Below the pieces are notes generated by a model. It saw only the letters and a program-made list of their open reading frames with translations. It was not told the DNA's origin and searched no databases. Shown here one piece after another: positions 2,811 to 12,288 of a stretch of 44,422 nt of DNA. Source of the stretch: Kagunavirus 536P11. How positions within the stretch are numbered: position 1 is the stretch's first letter; each line of letters starts with the position of its first letter. The stretch lies in sequence record OZ035764.1, one strand, 5' to 3'. The position numbers were made by a program, and so were the translations under genes.

Positions 2811-3887
2811 ATGCTATTAACTTTAGCACCACAGGGTTTATCTATGAGCTTACTTACATCCCTAATCAGTCACCAGATATGGCTACAACGCACCGCATCT
2901 GGTGAAGTGAAAGACCTTGCGCCATTTCTTCAGGAAATGCGAGACGAAATCAAACGGCAGGTGCTGTTATTCGGTGACGACGGGCGAAGCACTGCACGAC
3001 TGAATAAATTGTTGCGCGACCTCGAAGAAGCACTGGCGGGGCTTACAGGCGACTGGCAGACAAAGCTGACAGAAGACCTTAAGGAACTGGCGGCGTGCGA
3101 GGCGGAGTGGAACGTAAAGACACTTAACGCCAACGTAAATGCGGAATTTGTTACGCCCACCGCCGAACAGGTGTGGGCTGCTGCTGAGTTTCAACCGCTC
3201 TCATTGAGCGGCAAGCCTGTTGATTTCTCTAAGCTGATGACCGGCTGGGGTGAAACCGAAGTCGCGCGCCTCGTAACCGGCGTTAAGATGGGTTTCGTAC
3301 AAGGTCAGACGACACGGCAGATTGTTAAGAATGTCATAGGCGCTGGCGGACTGGCTGACATCTCTGAACGCAACGCCGCTACGGTGATACGCACCGCGTT
3401 GTCGCACGTGTCCAACGAAGCCCGCAACGAGACATACCGACAGAATGACGACATCATCGAGAAATACGAATGGGTGTCAACGCTGGACAGCCGTACCAGT
3501 ACGATTTGCAGAGCCAGAGACGGAATGACGTGGGAAATCGGTAAAGGACCGATGCCCCCGGCCCATTTTGGGTGCAGAAGTACCACGGCCCCTGTAATAA
3601 GTTCAGAGTTCGACTTCCTGGATAAAGGTGCAAAACGGGCGGCTAAAGGCGCAGATGGTGGTACTCAGGTAAGCGCAGACACCACTTATTACGACTTTCT
3701 GAAACAGCAACCGGCATGGTTCGTGGATGAAGCACTCGGACCTACCCGCGGTGCTATATTCAGGAATAGTGGGATATCCCCAGAGGAATTCCGGGTAATA
3801 TCCGTCGACGCTTTTGGTAGACCTTTAACCTTGAAGGAGATGGCGGCGTTAGATAACAGGGTTGCTGAATATCTTAGGTCGGTATAA
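2811..3887 (+). CDS. head morphogenesis / minor capsid protein
   Basis: 358 aa ORF between portal and scaffold-capsid genes; assignment by position only. Confidence 0.45.
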   Translation: MLLTLAPQGLSMSLLTSLISHQIWLQRTASGEVKDLAPFLQEMRDEIKRQVLLFGDDGRSTARLNKLLRDLEEALAGLTGDWQTKLTEDLKELAACEAEWNVKTLNANVNAEFVTPTAEQVWAAAEFQPLSLSGKPVDFSKLMTGWGETEVARLVTGVKMGFVQGQTTRQIVKNVIGAGGLADISERNAATVIRTALSHVSNEARNETYRQNDDIIEKYEWVSTLDSRTSTICRARDGMTWEIGKGPMPPAHFGCRSTTAPVISSEFDFLDKGAKRAAKGADGGTQVSADTTYYDFLKQQPAWFVDEALGPTRGAIFRNSGISPEEFRVISVDAFGRPLTLKEMAALDNRVAEYLRSV

Positions 3888-3945
3888 AGTATATCTAGTA
3901 GCTAGCTTTGGTCGGTGAACTACTAAAAATAGAGAAAGAATATAA

Positions 3946-3996
3946 CCCCATGAAGGTATGCCTATCTCTGGCATCGACCAATCTTCATGGGGTTTT
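3946..3996 (+). terminator. nested stem-loop plus T-tract (terminator-like)
   Basis: 10-bp inverted repeat CCCCATGAAG / CTTCATGGGG (3946-3955 / 3983-3992) enclosing inner stem ATGCC / GGCAT, followed by TTTT. Confidence 0.45.
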
Positions 3997-4011
3997 CTTA
4001 TAGGGTTTAAT

Positions 4012-4581
4012 ATGGGAATTGTTTTTGGTGTGGGTATTAACGATGTTTCACCAATAAGTTGCGGAGGGGTGCATATAGCGTCCTACGCCGTATGGAAGAA
4101 CATGTTAAAGAGGTGCTACGACAAGAAATGGCAGCAAAGAAACAGAACTTATATAGGTTGCCGCGTGTCGGACGATTGGTTGGTGTTCAGTAATTTCAAG
4201 GTCTGGTTTGATGATTTTTATGTACCTGGGTGGCAGATAGATAAGGATTTACTTAACCCGGGAAATAAGGTTTACGATGCTTCTAACTGTGTTTTCATCC
4301 CTAAATCCCTCAATACTTTCCTAACAGCCCACGACGCTCTTCGAGGCGAACACCCACTCGGCGTACATTTCCATAAACAAAAGAAAAGATTCATCGCTCA
4401 AGTATCCGTGGATGGCGTATCTGAACAAATAGGCGCTTACGAAACCGCTCAAGAGGCACACGTAGCATGGTTTCATAGAAAAATTGAATTAGCATATGAA
4501 TACAAAGGTCTTTGCGATAGCATAGACCCACGCCTTTTCGAAGGCGTCTTACGTAAGATTAACTCAATGAAAGAGGTTTAG
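4012..4581 (+). CDS. HNH-AP2 type homing endonuclease-like protein
   Basis: C-terminal AP2-like DNA-binding segment (GVHFHKQKKRFIAQVSV...AHVAWFHRK); ORF-track start 3958 lies inside the upstream hairpin, so ATG 4012 preferred. Confidence 0.5.
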   Translation: MGIVFGVGINDVSPISCGGVHIASYAVWKNMLKRCYDKKWQQRNRTYIGCRVSDDWLVFSNFKVWFDDFYVPGWQIDKDLLNPGNKVYDASNCVFIPKSLNTFLTAHDALRGEHPLGVHFHKQKKRFIAQVSVDGVSEQIGAYETAQEAHVAWFHRKIELAYEYKGLCDSIDPRLFEGVLRKINSMKEV

Positions 4582-4584
4582 TTT

Positions 4585-5043
4585 ATGGGCTTTTTCAAAG
4601 TAACTGATGTGCTGTCACGTCGTGTAGTCCAGTACGCCCGCGTGTCTGGCTCTGGCGAGAACGTGGTATTTATCGAAGATGAAAGTGTACTGGGTACACC
4701 AGTAGACGATATGCCGTTTGCGGATAAAACCGGTATTGCGTTGCCAGCCGCGGGTATGCTTTATGAAATTCCGTATCTGGCTGACGCAGGCGACGTGTAC
4801 TTCTCGGCGCAACCGCAGGACGCTGAACTGGCGGACGGCAGCGCAACTATCACTGTCGAAGTTAAGGCGGGCAAAGCGCCGTATGCTCTTACCTGGTACA
4901 AAGACGGTAAGGAAGTTGTAAACGCACCTGAAGAGGCCTTGTCTCTGACGGTTAACGCAGCAGGTGAATACTTCGTTAAAGTCACCGATGCCGGTGGCGT
5001 AGAGGCCGTCAGTAAAGCGGCGAAGGTAACTAAGCCAGAATGA
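4585..5043 (+). CDS. Ig-like domain protein (possible capsid/virion decoration)
   Basis: 152 aa; C-terminal segment with PYALTWYKDGK Ig-like signature shared with ORF 8161-8511. Confidence 0.45.
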   Translation: MGFFKVTDVLSRRVVQYARVSGSGENVVFIEDESVLGTPVDDMPFADKTGIALPAAGMLYEIPYLADAGDVYFSAQPQDAELADGSATITVEVKAGKAPYALTWYKDGKEVVNAPEEALSLTVNAAGEYFVKVTDAGGVEAVSKAAKVTKPE

Positions 5044-5166: not shown

Positions 5167-5370
5167 CTGAGCTTGTGAAGTATGAACAAGCGACCGCGGC
5201 GCGGGCAGGTAACGGAGCGGGACGTAAGTCCTGAGTGTAGTTACGCTGACGCGTTCGGAAGGGCCATACTCTATTGCTTGTGTAAAAAGTAACTGGTTTA
5301 CTGAGATTACGCCGTTTCTATGTTTAAATGATAAGGACTAGCGCCCCGCTTTATGGCGGGGCTTTACTTA
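5167..5370 (+). ncRNA. candidate structured small RNA, copy A (boundaries approximate)
   Basis: no conserved ORF; blocks CTGAGCTTGTGA, CAAGCGACCGCGG and GAGTGTAGTTaCGCTGaCGCgTTCGGAAGGGCCA shared with 37112-37349; hairpins GCTTGT/ACAAGC and GGGAC-GUAA-GUCCU; ends in GCCCCGC/GCGGGGC hairpin plus T-tract. Confidence 0.4.
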
Positions 5371-5386
5371 TCGAGAAAGGAGAAAC

Positions 5387-5773
5387 ATGAATCTTAAAGC
5401 AACTGTCGTAGCGGGAGCATGTTTCATCATCCTGGCTTACGCACACGGCATCTACCAGTATCGCAGCGGCTGGAACGAAGGCCGGGCGAATCTCGTTTCG
5501 CAGCAACAGCAGAAAGCACAGGCTGAGTTAGCGAAGAAAACACAACGGCAGCAGCAGGACGAATCAAAGGCCGCAGCCGCTGACAACGAAGGCAAGACGA
5601 AATCAGAGGTGATTACCCGTGAAGTCGTTAAGTACATTAAAACGCCTGGTCGCAGCGTGTGCACTTTTGACACTGAGCGCGTGCAACTCAAGTCCCGCGC
5701 CGTCACCAACGCCAATTCCATCCCCGGATACGACAATGATGCAGCCGCCGTGCAAACTGGCCGCGCCAAGTAG
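5387..5773 (+). CDS. Rz: i-spanin (Rz-like)
   Basis: N-terminal TM helix then charged Q/A/K-rich periplasmic region; encloses start of an overlapping +1-frame lipoprotein ORF. Confidence 0.6.
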   Translation: MNLKATVVAGACFIILAYAHGIYQYRSGWNEGRANLVSQQQQKAQAELAKKTQRQQQDESKAAAADNEGKTKSEVITREVVKYIKTPGRSVCTFDTERVQLKSRAVTNANSIPGYDNDAAAVQTGRAK

Positions 5774-5882
5774 CGATGCCGACGAGGATTTGGCTATCGA
5801 CGTCCAGAACGCCGAATGTGTACGGCAACTGAGGCTGAAAGTGTTCATGTTGCAGGATTACGTGAGGAATATTCTGGAATAG
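5619..5882 (+). CDS. Rz1: o-spanin (Rz1-like lipoprotein)
   Basis: starts inside Rz in another frame; signal peptide with lipobox LSAC; Pro-rich mature region including MQPP. Confidence 0.55.
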   Translation: MKSLSTLKRLVAACALLTLSACNSSPAPSPTPIPSPDTTMMQPPCKLAAPSSDADEDLAIDVQNAECVRQLRLKVFMLQDYVRNILE

Positions 5883-5964
5883 TTGCCTTGCATGTTGGAA
5901 TAATTTATTCTTGACATGTAAATCCGGGCGGCCCGGGTTCCAACGTCCAGGGGACATACTGACT

Positions 5965-6666
5965 ATGAATCGTTTTTTACGTTATCCGTTCCAGGAAGAA
6001 GCTGGAGCAGAAGATAAAGCTGGTGGCGGTGACGCACCAAAAATGTTCACCGCTGAAGAAGTTCAGGCGCTGATTGAGAAAGAAGTTGCCGGGCTTAAGG
6101 CAAATCAGGAAGCGTTGCTGGCGGAGAAGAAAGAAGCCGCTCGCAAAGCAAAAGAGGCCGAAGAACAACGGCAGCGCGCGCACCAGGAGGCGTTAAAGGC
6201 TGCTGGTAAGATGGACGAGTTCGAAAAAACGATTCGTAGCCAGTATGACCCGGTGTTAGCCGAGAAAGATGGTCGCATCTCCAAAATGGCGGAGCGCATC
6301 CTCGGCAGCGAACGTAAAGCGGTGTTAGGCTCTTTTGCGGGTGACTTTATTACCCCGGAAGCAGCGGACATTCTTGCACCGTTCGTCAAGACTGAGTTCG
6401 AAGGTGATGATGTGGTTACTAAGTTTGTCGGCCCAGACGGCAACGTAATCACGACTGACCCGGAACAGTTCCGCAAATACCTGCGCGAACACAAAGCGTT
6501 TTCGCATTTGATTAAAGCAAATGCAGCTTCCGGCGGCGGGGCTTCCGGTAGCAAAGGCGGCGGGGCCGCACCAGCGTTTAAAGACATGAGTGAAGCAGAG
6601 CGTTTAGCCCTGTATAAATCGAACCCTGCCGAATTTGAACGGCAACTTAAAGCCCTGAGGAAATAA
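5965..6666 (+). CDS. scaffolding protein
   Basis: A/E/K-rich coiled-coil-like protein directly upstream of major capsid gene; ATG 5965 preferred over track start 5911. Confidence 0.6.
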   Translation: MNRFLRYPFQEEAGAEDKAGGGDAPKMFTAEEVQALIEKEVAGLKANQEALLAEKKEAARKAKEAEEQRQRAHQEALKAAGKMDEFEKTIRSQYDPVLAEKDGRISKMAERILGSERKAVLGSFAGDFITPEAADILAPFVKTEFEGDDVVTKFVGPDGNVITTDPEQFRKYLREHKAFSHLIKANAASGGGASGSKGGGAAPAFKDMSEAERLALYKSNPAEFERQLKALRK

Positions 6667-6668
6667 TA

Positions 6669-7718
6669 ATGGCAATTACCACTATCGGCGATATCGTAAC
6701 TGGCAACATCCCGGTCCTGGCGTCTTACATGACCGAGGACCCGGTAGAAAAAACTGCGTTCTTCCAGTCCGGTATTCTGACCCCGACTCCGTACGCTGCC
6801 GAGATTGCCCGCGGCCCGTCCAACGTCGCTAATATTCCGTTCTGGAAAGCGATTGACACTTCCATCGAGCCTAACTACTCGAACGACGTATACCAGGACA
6901 TCGCTACCCCGCGTAACGTGCAGACCGGCGAGATGATGGCGCGCGTTGCATACCTGAACGAAGGCTTTGGCCAGGCGGACCTGACCGTTGAACTGACCAG
7001 CCAGAACCCGCTGCAATCTGTGGCTTCTCGCCTGGATAACTTCTGGCAGCGTCAGGCACAACGCCGTCTGATTGCTACCGCGCTCGGTCTGTACAATGAC
7101 AACGTAGCTGCTACCGACGCATACCATGAGCAGAACGACATGGTAATCGACGTGTCCTCTACTCTGGGCTTCGACGCTGGCGCGTTCATCGACGCTACCC
7201 AGACTATGGGTGATGCACTGATGGGTAACGGTGGTGAAGTGCTGGGCGCTATCGCTATGCACAGCTTCGTATACGCGCAGGCGCGTAAGCAGCAGCTCAT
7301 TGACTTCACCAGAGACGCCGACAACGACACCCTGTTTGCCACCTACCAGGGCTACCGTGTGATTGTTGACGACAGCATGACTGTAGTCGGTACCGGCAGC
7401 AGCCGTAAGTTCATCTCCATCATCTTCGGCAACGGCGCTATCGGTTACGGAGAAGGTAACCCGACCAATCCGCTGGCATATGAGCGCGAAGAGTCCCGCG
7501 GCAACGGCGGTGGCGTCGAAACCCTGTGGACACGTAAGACTTGGTTGCTGCACCCACTGGGCTACCGCTTCACCAGCGCGGTGATCACCGGCAACGGCAC
7601 CGAGACCGTCGCACGCTCCGCTTCCTGGCAGGACCTGGCGAACGCCTCCAACTGGAACCGTGTTGTTGGCCGTAAGCACGTACCGATTGCCTTCCTGGTA
7701 ACTGGTGTAGGGGCTTAA
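6669..7718 (+). CDS. major capsid protein
   Basis: 349 aa ORF after scaffold, followed by strong terminator; position and size typical. Confidence 0.75.
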   Translation: MAITTIGDIVTGNIPVLASYMTEDPVEKTAFFQSGILTPTPYAAEIARGPSNVANIPFWKAIDTSIEPNYSNDVYQDIATPRNVQTGEMMARVAYLNEGFGQADLTVELTSQNPLQSVASRLDNFWQRQAQRRLIATALGLYNDNVAATDAYHEQNDMVIDVSSTLGFDAGAFIDATQTMGDALMGNGGEVLGAIAMHSFVYAQARKQQLIDFTRDADNDTLFATYQGYRVIVDDSMTVVGTGSSRKFISIIFGNGAIGYGEGNPTNPLAYEREESRGNGGGVETLWTRKTWLLHPLGYRFTSAVITGNGTETVARSASWQDLANASNWNRVVGRKHVPIAFLVTGVGA

Positions 7719-7733
7719 GGTTAAGCTATAATC

Positions 7734-7758
7734 GAGAGGGACTTCGGTCCCTCTTTTC
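7734..7758 (+). terminator. intrinsic terminator (AGAGGGA-CTTCGG-TCCCTCT-TTTT)
   Basis: GC stem-loop plus T-run right after capsid stop. Confidence 0.7.
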
Positions 7759-7777
7759 ATTTACTAAGAGGTGAATT

Positions 7778-8149
7778 ATGGCTAAGACCGGAAAAGGCTT
7801 GCCGCGCAGCCTTCAGAATGTCGACTTCGGCGACCTGGACATCAGCGTAGGCTGAGGAGAAGTAACAGGTAAACCGGCGGTAATCGCGGCGGGGGCGACC
7901 CAATATGCGGCACGTACCGCTATTGGTGCAGGTACGTCAAGCCTTGCGATCGGAACAACTTCGACTACCGCGATGGCGGGAAATAAGTTCGTTCAGGGTG
8001 CTGCGGTTACAGACGTCGGCACGCAGACCGTTACGGGTGAAGAGGCTGCCGCGGTTGCTACGTCCGCACAGACTGCGGTTAACGCGGTAGGCACTCAACT
8101 TAACGCCTTACTGGCACAACTTCGTGCCGCTAAAATCATCGCATCCTGA
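7778..8149 (+). CDS. small structural protein ORF interrupted by in-frame TGA at 7853-7855
   Basis: strong RBS AAGAGGTG before ATG 7778; frame stays open in same phase after the TGA to 8149; no start codon in frame between 7856 and 7972. Confidence 0.35.
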
Positions 8150-8160
8150 GGAGCTTAAAA

Positions 8161-8511
8161 ATGGTTGATGTAATTAAACGTCGTATTACTGGTGTGTCCG
8201 CCGATACCGTGGGTGCTAAAATCGATATGGCAAATATCTCGCCAGCGTCTTTCTCTTCCGCGCTGGCGGCTACTACCTCCGTTACCGCAGGTGAAACCAT
8301 GACACTGACCGTAACCGTAACGGGCGGTCTGGAGCCGTATTCCTACCAGTGGTACAAGAACAACAACGCTATCGCCGGGGCGAACGCTGCTTCCTATGTG
8401 AAGGCGTCCACTACTACCGCAGATTCCGGTACGTATAAAGTGGTTGTTCGCGATGTGTATGGTAATATTATCTCCAGCAGCACTGTAGCAACTGTAGCAA
8501 CTGTGTCTTAA
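8161..8511 (+). CDS. Ig-like domain protein (possible head decoration)
   Basis: 116 aa with EPYSYQWYKNN...GTYKVVVRD Ig-like signature. Confidence 0.5.
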   Translation: MVDVIKRRITGVSADTVGAKIDMANISPASFSSALAATTSVTAGETMTLTVTVTGGLEPYSYQWYKNNNAIAGANAASYVKASTTTADSGTYKVVVRDVYGNIISSSTVATVATVS

Positions 8512-8547
8512 TGCGACGGCCCTTCGGGGCCGTAATAAGGAAAGGTC

Positions 8548-8727
8548 ATGGCAGATAATTATGTAATCCGCGAAAAATACACCCACGTTGATGTTGTTGA
8601 CGGTCAGGTGATACCAGTTCGCGGTGTTGTAGAAGCGGACGAGCTGGTTGCAACCCAACCGGACAGCGAAGAAGCGCACAACAACGGCGGCGGTACTAAG
8701 CGTCGTCGCCGTAAGTCAGAGGAATAA
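8548..8727 (+). CDS. hypothetical small protein (59 aa, not in ORF track)
   Basis: ATG 8548 with AAGGAAAGG RBS; ends in basic tail KRRRRKSEE; fills gap between annotated ORFs. Confidence 0.45.
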   Translation: MADNYVIREKYTHVDVVDGQVIPVRGVVEADELVATQPDSEEAHNNGGGTKRRRRKSEE

Positions 8728-8730
8728 TTT

Positions 8731-9243
8731 ATGCCGCTAATCGTGGAAACGGGAGAAATCGTACCTGGCGCTGACAGTTACATTAGCCTGGCTGACGCCC
8801 GCGCGTTAGCGGCTAATTATGGCCTTGAGCTACCGGAAGACGATACCGCAGCAGAGGTGGCCTTGCGCAACGGCGCTACTTATGTCGGGCTTGCAGAACC
8901 GCAGATGTGCGGTAGACGCGTGTCGGCAGAACAGTCTCTTGCGTATCCTCGCACCGGCGTAACGTTAAATGGCTTCCCTGTAGCGAACAGTGTTATCCCG
9001 AAACAGATAATTCTTGCGCAGGTAATCGCCGCAGTTACGTATGGCGCAGGCACCGAAGTGCGGGCTAACTCAGACGGCCGTTCCGTGCAGACTGAGCGTG
9101 TCGAGGGTGCAGTGACAGTGACCTACTTCAACAACGGCAACAGTGGCGCTACGACCGCGATTACGGCTGCGGACGACGCCTTACGCCCGTTACTGTGCGG
9201 CGGTCTTAACAATGGCTTCTCGTTTAACGTGTACCGGGGTTAA
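8731..9243 (+). CDS. head-tail connector/adaptor-like protein
   Basis: 170 aa, first gene after head genes; assignment by position. Confidence 0.4.
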   Translation: MPLIVETGEIVPGADSYISLADARALAANYGLELPEDDTAAEVALRNGATYVGLAEPQMCGRRVSAEQSLAYPRTGVTLNGFPVANSVIPKQIILAQVIAAVTYGAGTEVRANSDGRSVQTERVEGAVTVTYFNNGNSGATTAITAADDALRPLLCGGLNNGFSFNVYRG

Positions 9244-9245
9244 AA

Positions 9246-9860
9246 ATGGCGAATACTAAAACAGAGATATTCACGCTAATCGGATCCGAGCTACCGGACA
9301 ACACGACCGGACTTATCACGCCAGCGAAGCTGCGCGGGGTATTAACCCAGATGGCGGACTCACCTATTTACGCCACTCCCGGTGTTAAAGAGGTTGAAGT
9401 TCTCCGCGCAGCGTCAACAGTAGCGCAAGCGCCCGCCGCAGTAGATACAGCATTGCAGTTAACTTTCGGCTCTGCTCAGGGTAGCGCATCTGACCCGGTA
9501 ATGCTTAATGCTGCGGGGCTGGTTACGTTCAACACCGCGGGTAATTATGCCGTCCGCATCAAGTTACAGGCGGGGCGCACTGGAGCGAGCGGTACATCTA
9601 TCCTGTTATCGCGCATCCTCATCAACGGTGCTCAGTACGGCTCTCCCGCTGCCACAAAAATAGTCAGCGCCGACATAACAATTCCTATTGAGTCCCGCGT
9701 CGTTATTAACCCAACCGCAGGCCAGACGTTTGCCGTTCAGATTATGCGGGATAGCGCCGGGGCCAACTTCGGCGGTGTATACCCACAAGCGGCTACAGTA
9801 ACCTCATGGGGCACGGCACCGTCGGCGCTACTGGTTATCTCGAGACTGGAGGCCGCTTGA
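9246..9860 (+). CDS. virion structural protein
   Basis: 204 aa ORF in head-tail junction region. Confidence 0.4.
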   Translation: MANTKTEIFTLIGSELPDNTTGLITPAKLRGVLTQMADSPIYATPGVKEVEVLRAASTVAQAPAAVDTALQLTFGSAQGSASDPVMLNAAGLVTFNTAGNYAVRIKLQAGRTGASGTSILLSRILINGAQYGSPAATKIVSADITIPIESRVVINPTAGQTFAVQIMRDSAGANFGGVYPQAATVTSWGTAPSALLVISRLEAA

Positions 9861-9954
9861 TGAATAAGTTCGCATGTGGTTTAGTTTTTGGTTTTCTTAC
9901 CGCGGTAGTCTTGCACAGTTACGGTGTTCTTTTGACGCTGCAAGAGGTGTTAAA

Positions 9955-10314
9955 ATGAGCACCGCTTTCAGTAAACGTATGCAAGGCGTGGGTACACGTC
10001 TGCTAACCAAATTCGGTAGCACGGTATCTTTGGTTCGTGCTGGCTCGAAAGTGTGGGATGAAGTTCTCGGTGAGTACGTCTGGTCTGCGGATGAAGTGTT
10101 GCCGTTGAAGGCGGTTCCGGTTCCGGTAAACGCGGGACTGGTAAACGGTACGACGATTCAGGCTGGCGACATGATTGTTAAAGCGGATTGCAGTGTTGTA
10201 CCGAAGATGGAAGACAAGGTGCAATTCGGCGGCGAGCAATGGTCTGTCGTAGCCATTGAGAAGAAGATGGTTAACGATGATGTCGTGGCATACTTTATCC
10301 AGGTGAGAAAATGA
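9955..10314 (+). CDS. head-tail joining protein (putative)
   Basis: ATG 9955 with AAGAGGTG RBS preferred over track start 9874; stop overlaps next gene start. Confidence 0.4.
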   Translation: MSTAFSKRMQGVGTRLLTKFGSTVSLVRAGSKVWDEVLGEYVWSADEVLPLKAVPVPVNAGLVNGTTIQAGDMIVKADCSVVPKMEDKVQFGGEQWSVVAIEKKMVNDDVVAYFIQVRK

Positions 10315-10706
10315 GTTTCGCGCTTGATGTCTCTAAGTTCGTGGAAAAGGCGAAGAAGAACCCAGAGAAGGTGATGCGTCAGGTGTCTATCAAGCTGTTT
10401 TCCGCTATTATAAAGGCGAGTCCGGTAGATACAGGCCGATTTCGTATGAACTGGATGGCATCTGGCGGTACTCCTGCTTCCGGGATTACGGACGCTACAG
10501 ATAAATCAGGAAACATAGCAATCGGAAACGCTACAGGTTTCGTACTGAAAGCCACCGACTGGCGCGAGTTCACGCTGACAAATAATCTGCCGTATGCACA
10601 ACGACTGGAGTATGGTTGGTCGCAGCAAGCGCCCGCCGGGATGGTCAGGACTAACGTGTCTCGCTTCCAGCAACTCATTAATGAAGAAGCCAACAAGGTG
10701 AAATAA
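10311..10706 (+). CDS. tail component, HK97 gp10-like
   Basis: 131 aa; PVDTGRFRMNW motif resembles HK97 gp10 family signature; overlapping start/stop with neighbours. Confidence 0.45.
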   Translation: MSFALDVSKFVEKAKKNPEKVMRQVSIKLFSAIIKASPVDTGRFRMNWMASGGTPASGITDATDKSGNIAIGNATGFVLKATDWREFTLTNNLPYAQRLEYGWSQQAPAGMVRTNVSRFQQLINEEANKVK

Positions 10707-11119
10707 TGGGCTACTTTGAGGACTTAACCAAAGCGTTTGATGTGCCGTTGGTAGCCTTCGGGAACGCAAACGGCATCAAGGTTGCGCTTGAAAACATCGA
10801 CGCGCCGACGTCAACCGATACGCCGTATCTGGCGAGTTACATGTTGCTGGCAGATACGGAACAGGCGGATTTGTTCTTCACCGAGCAACGCTCTGGTATC
10901 TATCAGGTCGACATTAACTACGCATCGGCGCAAGGTAGCGCGCCAATCAATAAAATGGCAGACTTACTTAACACGGCGTTTAAAGCAGGCAAGTCATTTT
11001 CACGTAACGACATCTGCGCCGAGGTTCAATCGGTTAGCCTGGGGCCGCTGATTGTAGAAAACGGATGGGCCAAAAGACCATTGTCAATTAACTTTATTGC
11101 ATTCACCAAGAGGCTGTGA
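10706..11119 (+). CDS. tail completion/terminator-like protein
   Basis: 137 aa ORF immediately upstream of major tail gene. Confidence 0.35.
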   Translation: MGYFEDLTKAFDVPLVAFGNANGIKVALENIDAPTSTDTPYLASYMLLADTEQADLFFTEQRSGIYQVDINYASAQGSAPINKMADLLNTAFKAGKSFSRNDICAEVQSVSLGPLIVENGWAKRPLSINFIAFTKRL

Positions 11120-12288
11120 ATATGACTACAACTCCTTTTAAGGGCGCGAATACCGCGCAATTCTATGTGGCGGAAGTTACCCCGGGCGTAACACCGGCTA
11201 ACCCTGTCTGGTCGCCGTTGCGTAACACTGGCGGTGTTCCTGCTATCACCCGCGACACGCTGACCTCCAACGAGCTGGACGGCAGCCGTGAAACTACATC
11301 CATCCGCACCGGTAACAAACAGGTTAGCGGTGAATACGCGATCGAGCTTAGCTCGAAAAGCCAGGACGACTGGCTGGCGGGTGCTTTAGGCGCTACGTGG
11401 CAATCAGGTGTTTCTCTGTCTGGGCTGTCGATTACCGTCGCACCAGCGGGTAAGACGTTCACACGCTCCACCGGCAGCTTTATTACCGACGGCGTTGAAG
11501 TGGGCGACCTGATTGCGTTTACCGACTTAACGGGGGATAACGCCAAACCGTTTATCGTAACCGCAGTAAATGCACTGGTAGTAACCGGGGCGGGTATCCA
11601 ACACACCCTGACCACCGAGAAAAAAACTAGTAAGGCTAAAACCGGCGACACGCTGGAAACCGGTAACACGTGTAAGACGTTCTCTATCCTTACCTGGTAC
11701 AAAGGCCAGTGCGGCGGTACTGACGCGTACACGTTAACCAAAGGCGTGGAAGTTTCTGGTTTTACCATCGAACAGGCTGTTAACGCGATGGTAACTGGCA
11801 GCTTCCCATTCATCGGTCGCAGTCAGGAGATTCTCACTACGCCGCCGACCGGTTCCAACTTCTCATCTGTTACTTTTGGTGATGAGCCGTTCTCTTCGGT
11901 TGACGTTTCCGTGTTCGATGGCTCTACGCCGTTGCGTTGTGATAGCCTTACCATCACCAACGACAACAGCGCGTCCGCGCAGTTCGAACTCGGCAATACT
12001 AATGTGGCGTTTGTGGAGCGTAGCCGCGCGGCTAACACCTTCTCCATCTCCGGCAAGCTGTACGACATGGCTATGATTCAGAAGTTTATCAACGAACAAC
12101 AGGTAGAGATTAACTCTATTCTGGCGGGGGTAAACGGGGCTATGTCTTTCAGTCTGAAACGTGCAGAACTCACGGCGGTTACGCCAGAGATTGGCGGGCC
12201 TGAGTCAATCACTCAGAGCATAGAAGGACAGTCCACAGGCAATCAATACCAATCTTCTATTGTAATACAGCGTATTAGCTACGCGTAA
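11116..12288 (+). CDS. major tail (tube) protein
   Basis: 390 aa ORF upstream of chaperone and tape measure; followed by terminator. Confidence 0.55.
   Translation: MNMTTTPFKGANTAQFYVAEVTPGVTPANPVWSPLRNTGGVPAITRDTLTSNELDGSRETTSIRTGNKQVSGEYAIELSSKSQDDWLAGALGATWQSGVSLSGLSITVAPAGKTFTRSTGSFITDGVEVGDLIAFTDLTGDNAKPFIVTAVNALVVTGAGIQHTLTTEKKTSKAKTGDTLETGNTCKTFSILTWYKGQCGGTDAYTLTKGVEVSGFTIEQAVNAMVTGSFPFIGRSQEILTTPPTGSNFSSVTFGDEPFSSVDVSVFDGSTPLRCDSLTITNDNSASAQFELGNTNVAFVERSRAANTFSISGKLYDMAMIQKFINEQQVEINSILAGVNGAMSFSLKRAELTAVTPEIGGPESITQSIEGQSTGNQYQSSIVIQRISYA

Follow-up and report, generated by a model that had tools for sequence, protein, structure and literature searches.

The locus examined occupies positions 7778–8149 on the plus strand of the Kagunavirus 536P11 sequence OZ035764.1; the window is the whole stretch of DNA that was analyzed, 44,422 nt in length. 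Phage 536P11 is a Kagunavirus/Jersey-like siphophage of the Guernseyvirinae, and its relatives infect E. coli and Salmonella. The locus is flanked on one side by the gene for the major head protein (6669–7718, PHROG 247) and on the other by the gene for a Hoc-like Ig decoration protein (8161–8511, PHROG 4069). These neighbors confirm the placement between capsid and decoration genes that had been proposed in the initial annotation. A terminator-like hairpin on the plus strand (7734–7765) separates the major capsid gene from the head-fibre gene discussed here. It consists of GAGAGGGAC-TTCG-GTCCCTCTT and a T-rich tail, and its stem (7734–7755) has 9 pairs. The hairpin sequence is kept upstream of the head-fibre gene in all IMG/VR relatives and provides context for the expression level of the gene.

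The start of the gene is as had been claimed. The Shine-Dalgarno sequence AAGAGGTG lies at 7766–7773, 4 nt before the ATG at 7778, and its counterpart in the relatives, AAGAGGT(G/A), is conserved. From this ATG, 25 sense codons (7778–7852) are translated into MAKTGKGLPRSLQNVDFGDLDISVG. They form an N-terminal module, beginning with MAKTGKGLPRSLQNVDF, that is common to three allelic forms of the gene. Codon 26 is a premature opal TGA at 7853–7855, and in the ancestral gene it was TGG (Trp26); the private substitution is G7855A. As was also noted earlier, the same frame stays open past this stop. Codons 27–123 (7856–8146), which amount to 97 further sense codons, encode the W-G-E-V-T-G-K-P / AARTAIGAGTS module and a C-terminal helix (LNALLAQLRAAKIIAS). 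The frame is then closed by the natural TGA stop of the gene at 8147–8149, whose position is the same in relatives and which is followed by the ribosome-binding site and the ATG (8161) of the Hoc-like gene. Two further features lie in the downstream part. A run of five G at codons 38–40 (7891–7895) is intact here and is a ±1 indel hot spot in six other backgrounds. Codon 43 (7904–7906) is a private TAT (Tyr); the nine closest relatives that were compared have GAG (Glu) here. The interval 7778–8149 is to be read as one gene, which encodes a 123-residue head-fibre (capsid decoration) protein.

Two small open reading frames overlap this gene on the plus strand. In agreement with the initial annotation, the stretch 7856–7972 offers no in-frame ATG, GTG or TTG, and the earliest in-frame start is the ATG at 7973 (Met66). 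The remnant that opens there (7973–8149) is 58 aa long and has neither a Shine-Dalgarno sequence nor the N-terminal anchor module. It is what gene callers report whenever the 5′ part of the head-fibre gene is broken, and its product is probably not functional. The second, at 7905–8090, is an ORF of 61 aa in the +1 frame that is Arg-rich, as had been described, and spurious. Its out-of-frame ATG at 7905 was made by the private GAG to TAT change at 7904–7906.

The identity of the protein can be assessed through its family. When residues 27–123 are taken by themselves, they match PHROG 1954 (“virion structural protein”, head and packaging) with E = 2e-40, and they are 98–100% identical to those of relatives. 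Because of this match, the open frame downstream of the stop is not a product of chance, and the suspicion that it is coding was justified. The Trp-repaired protein matches PHROG 1954 from residue 2 to residue 123, spanning the stop, with E = 2.5e-46. Trp26 starts the motif W-G-[ED]-[VI]-T-G-K-P-A-V-I...AARTAIGAGTS. Klebsiella phage proteins also carry this motif, preceded there by unrelated N-terminal domains, and in other proteins, it forms an internal repeat. The gene occurs in three allelic types: type A, the form of 536P11, with 123 aa; type B, with 99 aa; and type C, with 84 aa and without any Trp module. All three share the N-terminal ~17–24 residues (MAKTGKGLPRSL...DF...) and the C-terminal helix. 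Since the shared N-terminus accompanies a shared capsid, the module encoded by codons 1–25 is a putative capsid anchor.

Similarity to the head fibre of phage phi29 is confined to the C-terminal part. Residues 40–122 of the family profile align with residues 217–280, the last 64, of phi29 gp8.5 (hhalign E = 5e-5, 39% identity, probability 67.5%). The Pfam family PF11133 (Phage_head_fibr) is matched by 3 of 61 family members, with a best E of 7.5e-9, and the 536P11 protein itself gives no Pfam match at E ≤ 0.01. A single-sequence PDB search with the head-fibre protein returned no match. In the profile search of the PDB, a capsid decoration protein, a tail fibre and phi29 gp8.5 were matched weakly (E ~0.1), in each case through the C-terminal helix; the match to 3qc7 had E = 0.13. 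The AF2 monomer model is of low confidence overall (pLDDT 68, pTM 0.35), and only the helix at 89–117 is confidently predicted (pLDDT 84–92). A model that is confident for this helix alone would fit a subunit of an oligomeric fibre, and no folded N-terminal domain is seen in it. The family profile shows no similarity to gp8.5 residues 1–216, and only ~25 residues precede the shared module. The order of the genes is alike in the two systems. The head-fibre gene is located directly downstream of the major capsid gene, as gene 8.5 follows gene 8 in phi29, and phi29 gene 8.5 and the fibre gene of Goe1 resemble it in that they adjoin the major capsid gene; the C-terminal 64 residues of gp8.5 are homologous. 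In contrast, gp8.5 has 280 aa, with a beta-tulip base and a long helix-turn-helix supercoil, whereas the Kagunavirus protein has 123 aa and lacks both. Judging from these alignments, the protein appears to be a small protein akin to the C-terminal portion of phi29-type head fibres, without the base domain of gp8.5.

Codon 26 is a sense codon in the relatives of 536P11. A 501-nt query around the locus found 534 phage records, the best of them at 99.2% identity; most are from phages of Salmonella and Escherichia. In ORH_001, fFiEco02, Ent2, SF4, LSPA1 and TU03, one uninterrupted CDS starts at the equivalent of position 7778. This CDS is 372 nt long and co-extensive with 7778–8149 in five of the six; in LSPA1, its end lies three codons further downstream, for a length of 381 nt. 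The annotated names are head fiber protein, virion structural protein and, incorrectly, tail fiber protein. The codon is TGG (Trp) in each of these six intact annotated relatives and in all type-A IMG/VR loci, and none of the 21 related IMG/VR loci carries a stop there. Among diverse homologues, aligned as a set of 61 drawn from 449 matches, position 26 is Trp in 58 and Tyr in 2. Thus, the comparison with homologous phage genes that had been suggested for the codon shows it to be sense (TGG, Trp) in all intact relatives. At position 43, 60 homologues have A, E, T or S, and Tyr is seen only in 536P11. The intact alleles evolve under purifying selection, with dN/dS values of 0.07–0.19. The difference between 536P11 and its nearest relative in the head-fibre gene is limited to G7855A and the two-base change of Glu43 to Tyr, with no synonymous differences. 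The lack of synonymous differences, together with these dN/dS values, indicates that a constrained functional gene was hit very recently.

The best reading of the locus, to which we assign a probability of about 0.6, is that of a genuine and leaky opal mutation (TGG to TGA) in a non-essential, phi29 gp8.5-like head fibre. The picture is that expected of an opal mutation: the sense codon of the relatives is one substitution away, the downstream frame is intact and homologous, and the standard code is used. The G7855A transition would convert the only Trp codon of the gene to an opal TGA. RF2 would then end most ribosomes at the UGA, and a 25-residue peptide that comprises the N-terminal module only would be freed. 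A small fraction of ribosomes may continue by means of Trp-tRNA(Trp), on the order of 1–4%, a level that comes from E. coli K-12 reporters and thus from another context and host. In wild-type E. coli K-12, a reporter in which Trp-tRNA(Trp) competes with RF2 showed UGA readthrough of ~2% at 37 °C and ~4% at 25 °C (PMC10570021), and the main residue inserted at UGA is Trp (PMC11903333). Because the original residue was Trp, the readthrough product would be the wild-type head fibre. For this reason, the allele would act as a leaky knock-down and not as a clean null.

The loss of most of the protein would be tolerated if such head fibres are accessory adhesion ornaments that are dispensable for assembly and infectivity. 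Phi29-type head fibres are non-essential, and fibre loss leaves viable phage (PMC7602432; PMC5977234); in phage Goe1, viability was kept after deletion of the head-fibre gene (PMC5977234). Since the fibres of Goe1 and of the phi29 type are non-essential, a fibre-poor phage can be expected to grow. By analogy with phi29-like phages, and in view of the natural null alleles described below, the fibre is likely to be dispensable in Kagunavirus-like phages. The mechanism would be that of a classical leaky opal mutant, and its biology would parallel that of fibre-less phi29 and Goe1 mutants. The classical leaky opal mutants of E. coli and coliphages likewise involve a UGG to UGA transition, competition between Trp-tRNA(Trp) and RF2, and restoration of the original residue. 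They differ in that they are selected laboratory mutants, whereas the 536P11 allele is found in a natural or deposited genome.

A recent nonsense mutation and a sequencing error had both been named as options in the initial annotation. As a pair, they are supported by the single G-to-A change in a near-invariant Trp codon; sequence alone cannot separate the two. The lesion would accordingly be either recent or an error of the consensus. An error would mean that the true codon is TGG, perhaps with GAG at codon 43, and that the deposit is wrong at 7855 and possibly at 7904 and 7906. We regard this as an unlikely explanation, although one that deserves serious attention. The rarity of the TGA allele speaks for it, as the allele is a singleton across every collection searched. 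A strict pattern for the TGA version gave 0 matches in IMG/VR, compared with 3 for the TGG version of the same pattern, and the TGA allele also had 0 matches in the JGI metagenome contigs and 0 in the GTDB genomes. The 60-mer around the TGA had no 100% match among 50,697 phage records, the best matches having a single mismatch.

The distribution of the private changes also favors an error. Between 7300 and 8500, three bases are absent from nine relatives, namely, 7855 G>A, 7904 G>T and 7906 G>T. When the 5.8-kb head module was compared with five relatives, one further private site was found, at 10030; as the protein encoded there matches that of ORH_001 at 100% identity, this change has to be synonymous. 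Of the four private sites in this module, three are therefore clustered within 52 nt (P ~0.001, by simulation), as would be the case for a locally poor consensus, and all three depart from G on the same strand. However, no sequence motif common to the three sites points to a systematic artefact of base calling. Consensus errors are mostly homopolymer indels, yet the G5 run 36 nt downstream is correct. The rest of the genome also argues against poor sequence quality. Of 49 ORH_001 proteins, the head fibre is the only one with a stop in its alignment to the 536P11 genome, none of the other genes compared shows a stop or a frameshift, for all but three of the other proteins the alignment covers 95% of the length or more, and the long ORFs are unbroken throughout the genome. 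Finally, real null alleles, including a stop at the identical codon, recur in independent assemblies. Given these recurrent null alleles elsewhere, a genuine mutation in 536P11 is biologically unremarkable.

Two further sources of the clustered changes were considered. A gene-conversion patch from elsewhere in the genome was rejected: only chance 9-mers recur, and there is no template for the three bases. A diversity-generating retroelement was rejected by reasoning, as the ancestral bases are G and not A and no such element was seen.

Another option named for the stop was programmed UGA readthrough, in which selection would maintain both the 25-aa product and a low-abundance full-length fibre, in the manner of the Qbeta A1 protein. 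In Qbeta, a UGA in a structural gene, that of the coat protein, is decoded as Trp by the host tRNA-Trp, and the extended protein that results is a minor component of the capsid. That stop is conserved, each of the two products has a function, and the longer one is essential. The 536P11 locus resembles this case in having a UGA in a phage structural gene that would be read as Trp by the host tRNA-Trp. It differs from it in that the stop is a private mutation within a gene that is otherwise uninterrupted, and its short product is a stub of 25 residues. A UGA followed by G, as here, is not the strongest terminator, which counts in favor of readthrough. The position of the stop also coincides exactly with the junction at which the family-specific N-terminal module gives way to the widely shared W-G-E-V-T-G-K-P module, and a second lineage has another stop, TAG, at codon 26. 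That tRNA-Trp reads UGA at the percent level (PMC10570021) also favors it.

Several observations speak against a programmed event. The stop is not conserved, since all intact relatives have TGG and Trp is found in 58 of 61 homologues. The upstream 25 aa are a stub of one protein, as the match to PHROG 1954 spans residues 2–123, and the sequence downstream of the stop is the same in the relatives with TGG, so it has not evolved as a readthrough signal. No stimulatory RNA structure was detected: the segment 7845–7945 folds no better than its shuffles (z = 0.19), and Rfam at E ≤ 10 returned no element and no SECIS for 7600–8300. The recurrence of stops at codon 26 is explained by mutation, given that Trp26 accounts for two of the four transition routes to a stop before Met66, and the remaining lesions elsewhere are frameshifts. 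Programmed readthrough with short and long products was therefore not upheld, and we consider it extremely doubtful.

Other forms of recoding were examined as well. Selenocysteine insertion was rejected, since there is no Rfam match and the homologues carry Trp or Tyr at the site. The use of genetic code 4 or of a suppressor tRNA was also rejected: ARAGORN found no tRNA genes in the whole 44,422-nt sequence, an in-frame stop is present in only one of 49 genes, and TGA is a normal terminator in this phage. It ends both the head-fibre gene and the gene at 4585–5043 at conserved positions.

Termination might also be followed by reinitiation, with a C-terminal fragment from Met66 (7973) or from a non-canonical start as the functional product. 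The mutation creates a Shine-Dalgarno-like GAGGAG at 7854–7859, and the 58-aa ORF from the ATG at 7973 persists. However, no ATG, GTG or TTG in any frame lies at a normal spacing from GAGGAG, and the nearest start in this frame comes 114 nt further downstream and has no Shine-Dalgarno sequence of its own. The resulting fragment would also be devoid of the N-terminal module that all three allele types possess and of most of the Trp-motif module. Reinitiation is barely credible on these grounds, and even when programmed readthrough and reinitiation are taken jointly, they are very improbable.

The reading as a leaky opal mutation gains biological context from the recurrent disruption of the same gene elsewhere. 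Lesions were searched for by an exact lookup of the 58-aa remnant ORF in a large assembly collection, by a search with the remnant, and through short protein matches. Besides phage fEg-Eco19, thirteen further contigs or records have a disrupted 5′ part of the type-A allele. Codon 26 is changed from TGG to TAG in four ENA assemblies (L037, L038, L042 and L043). A 1-nt (G) deletion in codon 24, which leads to an immediate TAG, is found in three Logan runs (L039, L044 and L045). One G is lost from the run at 7891–7895 in fEg-Eco19, L041, L033, L047 (a Salmonella Jersey-type phage) and L049, and one G is gained in this run in L048. The 58-aa ORF is present on nine contigs, all of them with 5′ lesions, and in the annotation of fEg-Eco19, only this remnant was called. 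A few of the lesions may be assembly errors, as some contigs have ~2x coverage, but it is unlikely that the same TAG in four separate assemblies arose in this way. The recurrent lesions, as far as the assembled sequences can tell, support the view that fibre loss is tolerated.

The sites of these lesions are those at which mutations would be expected. The protein has a single Trp, which provides two of the four transition routes to a stop upstream of Met66, and G5 is the longest homopolymer in the same region. Because codon 26 and the G5 run are the most mutable positions of the gene, the recurrence at codon 26 needs no special mechanism.

The correct description of the locus has practical consequences. 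The interval 7778–8149 should be recorded as a single, disrupted head-fibre gene or, after a check of the reads, be corrected to TGG. It would be wrong to annotate it as a 25-aa ORF and a 58-aa hypothetical protein, or as a recoding site, and fEg-Eco19 has already been misannotated in the former way. The repeated knock-outs argue that head fibres are dispensable, or at times disadvantageous, in this widely used group of coliphages and Salmonella phages that are candidates for therapy. The TGA allele offers a ready-made natural variant, fibre-less or fibre-poor, with which the function of the fibre can be tested. The mutation adds one more example to a familiar kind of event, and what is worth following up is the recurrent, independent disruption of a constrained decoration gene across the Guernseyvirinae.

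The lesions also raise the question of dosage. Intact copies of the gene evolve under purifying selection, yet independent lesions have struck it repeatedly, with UGA or UAG at Trp26 and ±1 changes in the G5 run. At least two of the lesion classes would be of a leaky or reversible kind, namely, the UGA that is read as Trp and the G-deletion alleles that would permit a −1 slip. From the sequence of the run, a −1 slip of tRNA-Gly on G-GGG in the latter alleles would restore the wild-type peptide. It might be speculated that such leaky lesions serve as a recurrent, selectable “dimmer” on head-fibre dosage in the Guernseyvirinae, although we judge this to be improbable. If it were true, lineages might switch their fibres down when these are costly, e.g., when they are sensed by host defence or bind at a non-productive site. 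This would amount to contingency-locus-like behavior in a virulent coliphage.

The G run itself may behave like a weak contingency tract. In structural genes of Campylobacter phages, hypermutable, phase-variable poly-G tracts of ~G9 or longer are known, and the likeness is that ±1 changes in a G run repeatedly inactivate the head-fibre gene of the relatives. The Campylobacter tracts are longer, whereas the head-fibre run is only G5 and is in frame in 536P11.

The Trp26 codon of the head-fibre gene (7778-8149, plus strand), which is replaced by TGA in the window (7853-7855), is also interrupted in a related phage lineage. In four separate metagenome assemblies, a stop codon is found exactly at this position, but it is TAG, unlike the stop of the window. 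The contigs concerned (L037, L038, L042 and L043; ENA ERZ1689157, ERZ1690027, ERZ1689913 and ERZ1690229) have a low coverage of about 2x, and the four assemblies probably come from one study.

A second site of disruption lies in codons 38-40, where a run of five G residues (7891-7895) is a hot spot for ±1 indels. The gene is frameshifted at this run in six independent backgrounds, which include both E. coli and Salmonella phages. One G is missing from the run in the records L029/L040, L041, L033, L047 and L049, and L048 has one G more. With a G lost, a -1 slip on G-GGG would give back the wild-type peptide.

The head-fibre gene also exists in at least three allelic modules, as can be seen when the window gene is compared with the contigs L012-L028 and the homologous proteins P0125-P0158. 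The longest, of 123 aa, carries the Trp motif; the other two are 99 and 84 aa long. All three have the N-terminal ~17-24 residues in common, as well as an LN.LL..L+.AG.I.S helix at the C-terminus, and this arrangement implies module swapping with a junction right around codons 18-25. Additionally, head-fibre::Hoc-like fusion proteins and head-fibre genes with in-frame internal deletions are present in public assemblies (Logan short contigs P0040, P0111, P0036 and P0095). These forms represent either genuine deletion variants or artefacts of assembly across repeated Thr/Ala-rich sequence. Upstream of the gene, the major capsid gene is followed directly, ahead of the head-fibre RBS, by a terminator-like hairpin (7734-7765) that is conserved and has a T tract. 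Transcription that runs on into the decoration genes is probably attenuated by this hairpin.

The head module contains two separate Ig/Hoc-like decoration genes (4585-5043 and 8161-8511), and the motif (E/A)PY(S/A)(Y/L)(Q/T)WYK(N/D) occurs in both. In a related IMG/VR contig (L017, IMGVR_UViG_3300045988_026856), the Hoc-like gene that follows the head-fibre gene has an in-frame TAG (…TAVTAG*TMTLT…), a further case of a disrupted decoration gene in this family. An inserted 207-aa ORF (3958-4581) separates the head morphogenesis gene from the 152-aa Hoc-like gene. ORH_001 lacks it at this place (alignment gap 3875-4584). The ORF shares 39% identity with an HNH endonuclease that ORH_001 encodes elsewhere and is probably a mobile homing endonuclease. 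The scaffold and major capsid genes are overlapped by a 551-aa antisense ORF (6105-7760, minus strand). The ORH_001 record lists this spurious ORF as a CDS ("hypothetical protein") and lacks an annotation of the real major capsid gene.

The stretch 5300-12280 has 24 sites that are private to the window, and 20 of them are located within 11100-12280 (tail tube gene). This concentration suggests that an unsampled lineage contributed a recombinant patch to a block that is otherwise 97-99% ORH_001-like. In the fFiEco02 record, a joined "putative frameshift product" is annotated across FE2_016/FE2_017, for which a programmed frameshift is possible; the window homologues of these two genes lie at 9955-10311 and 10311-10706 (region ~9955-10706).
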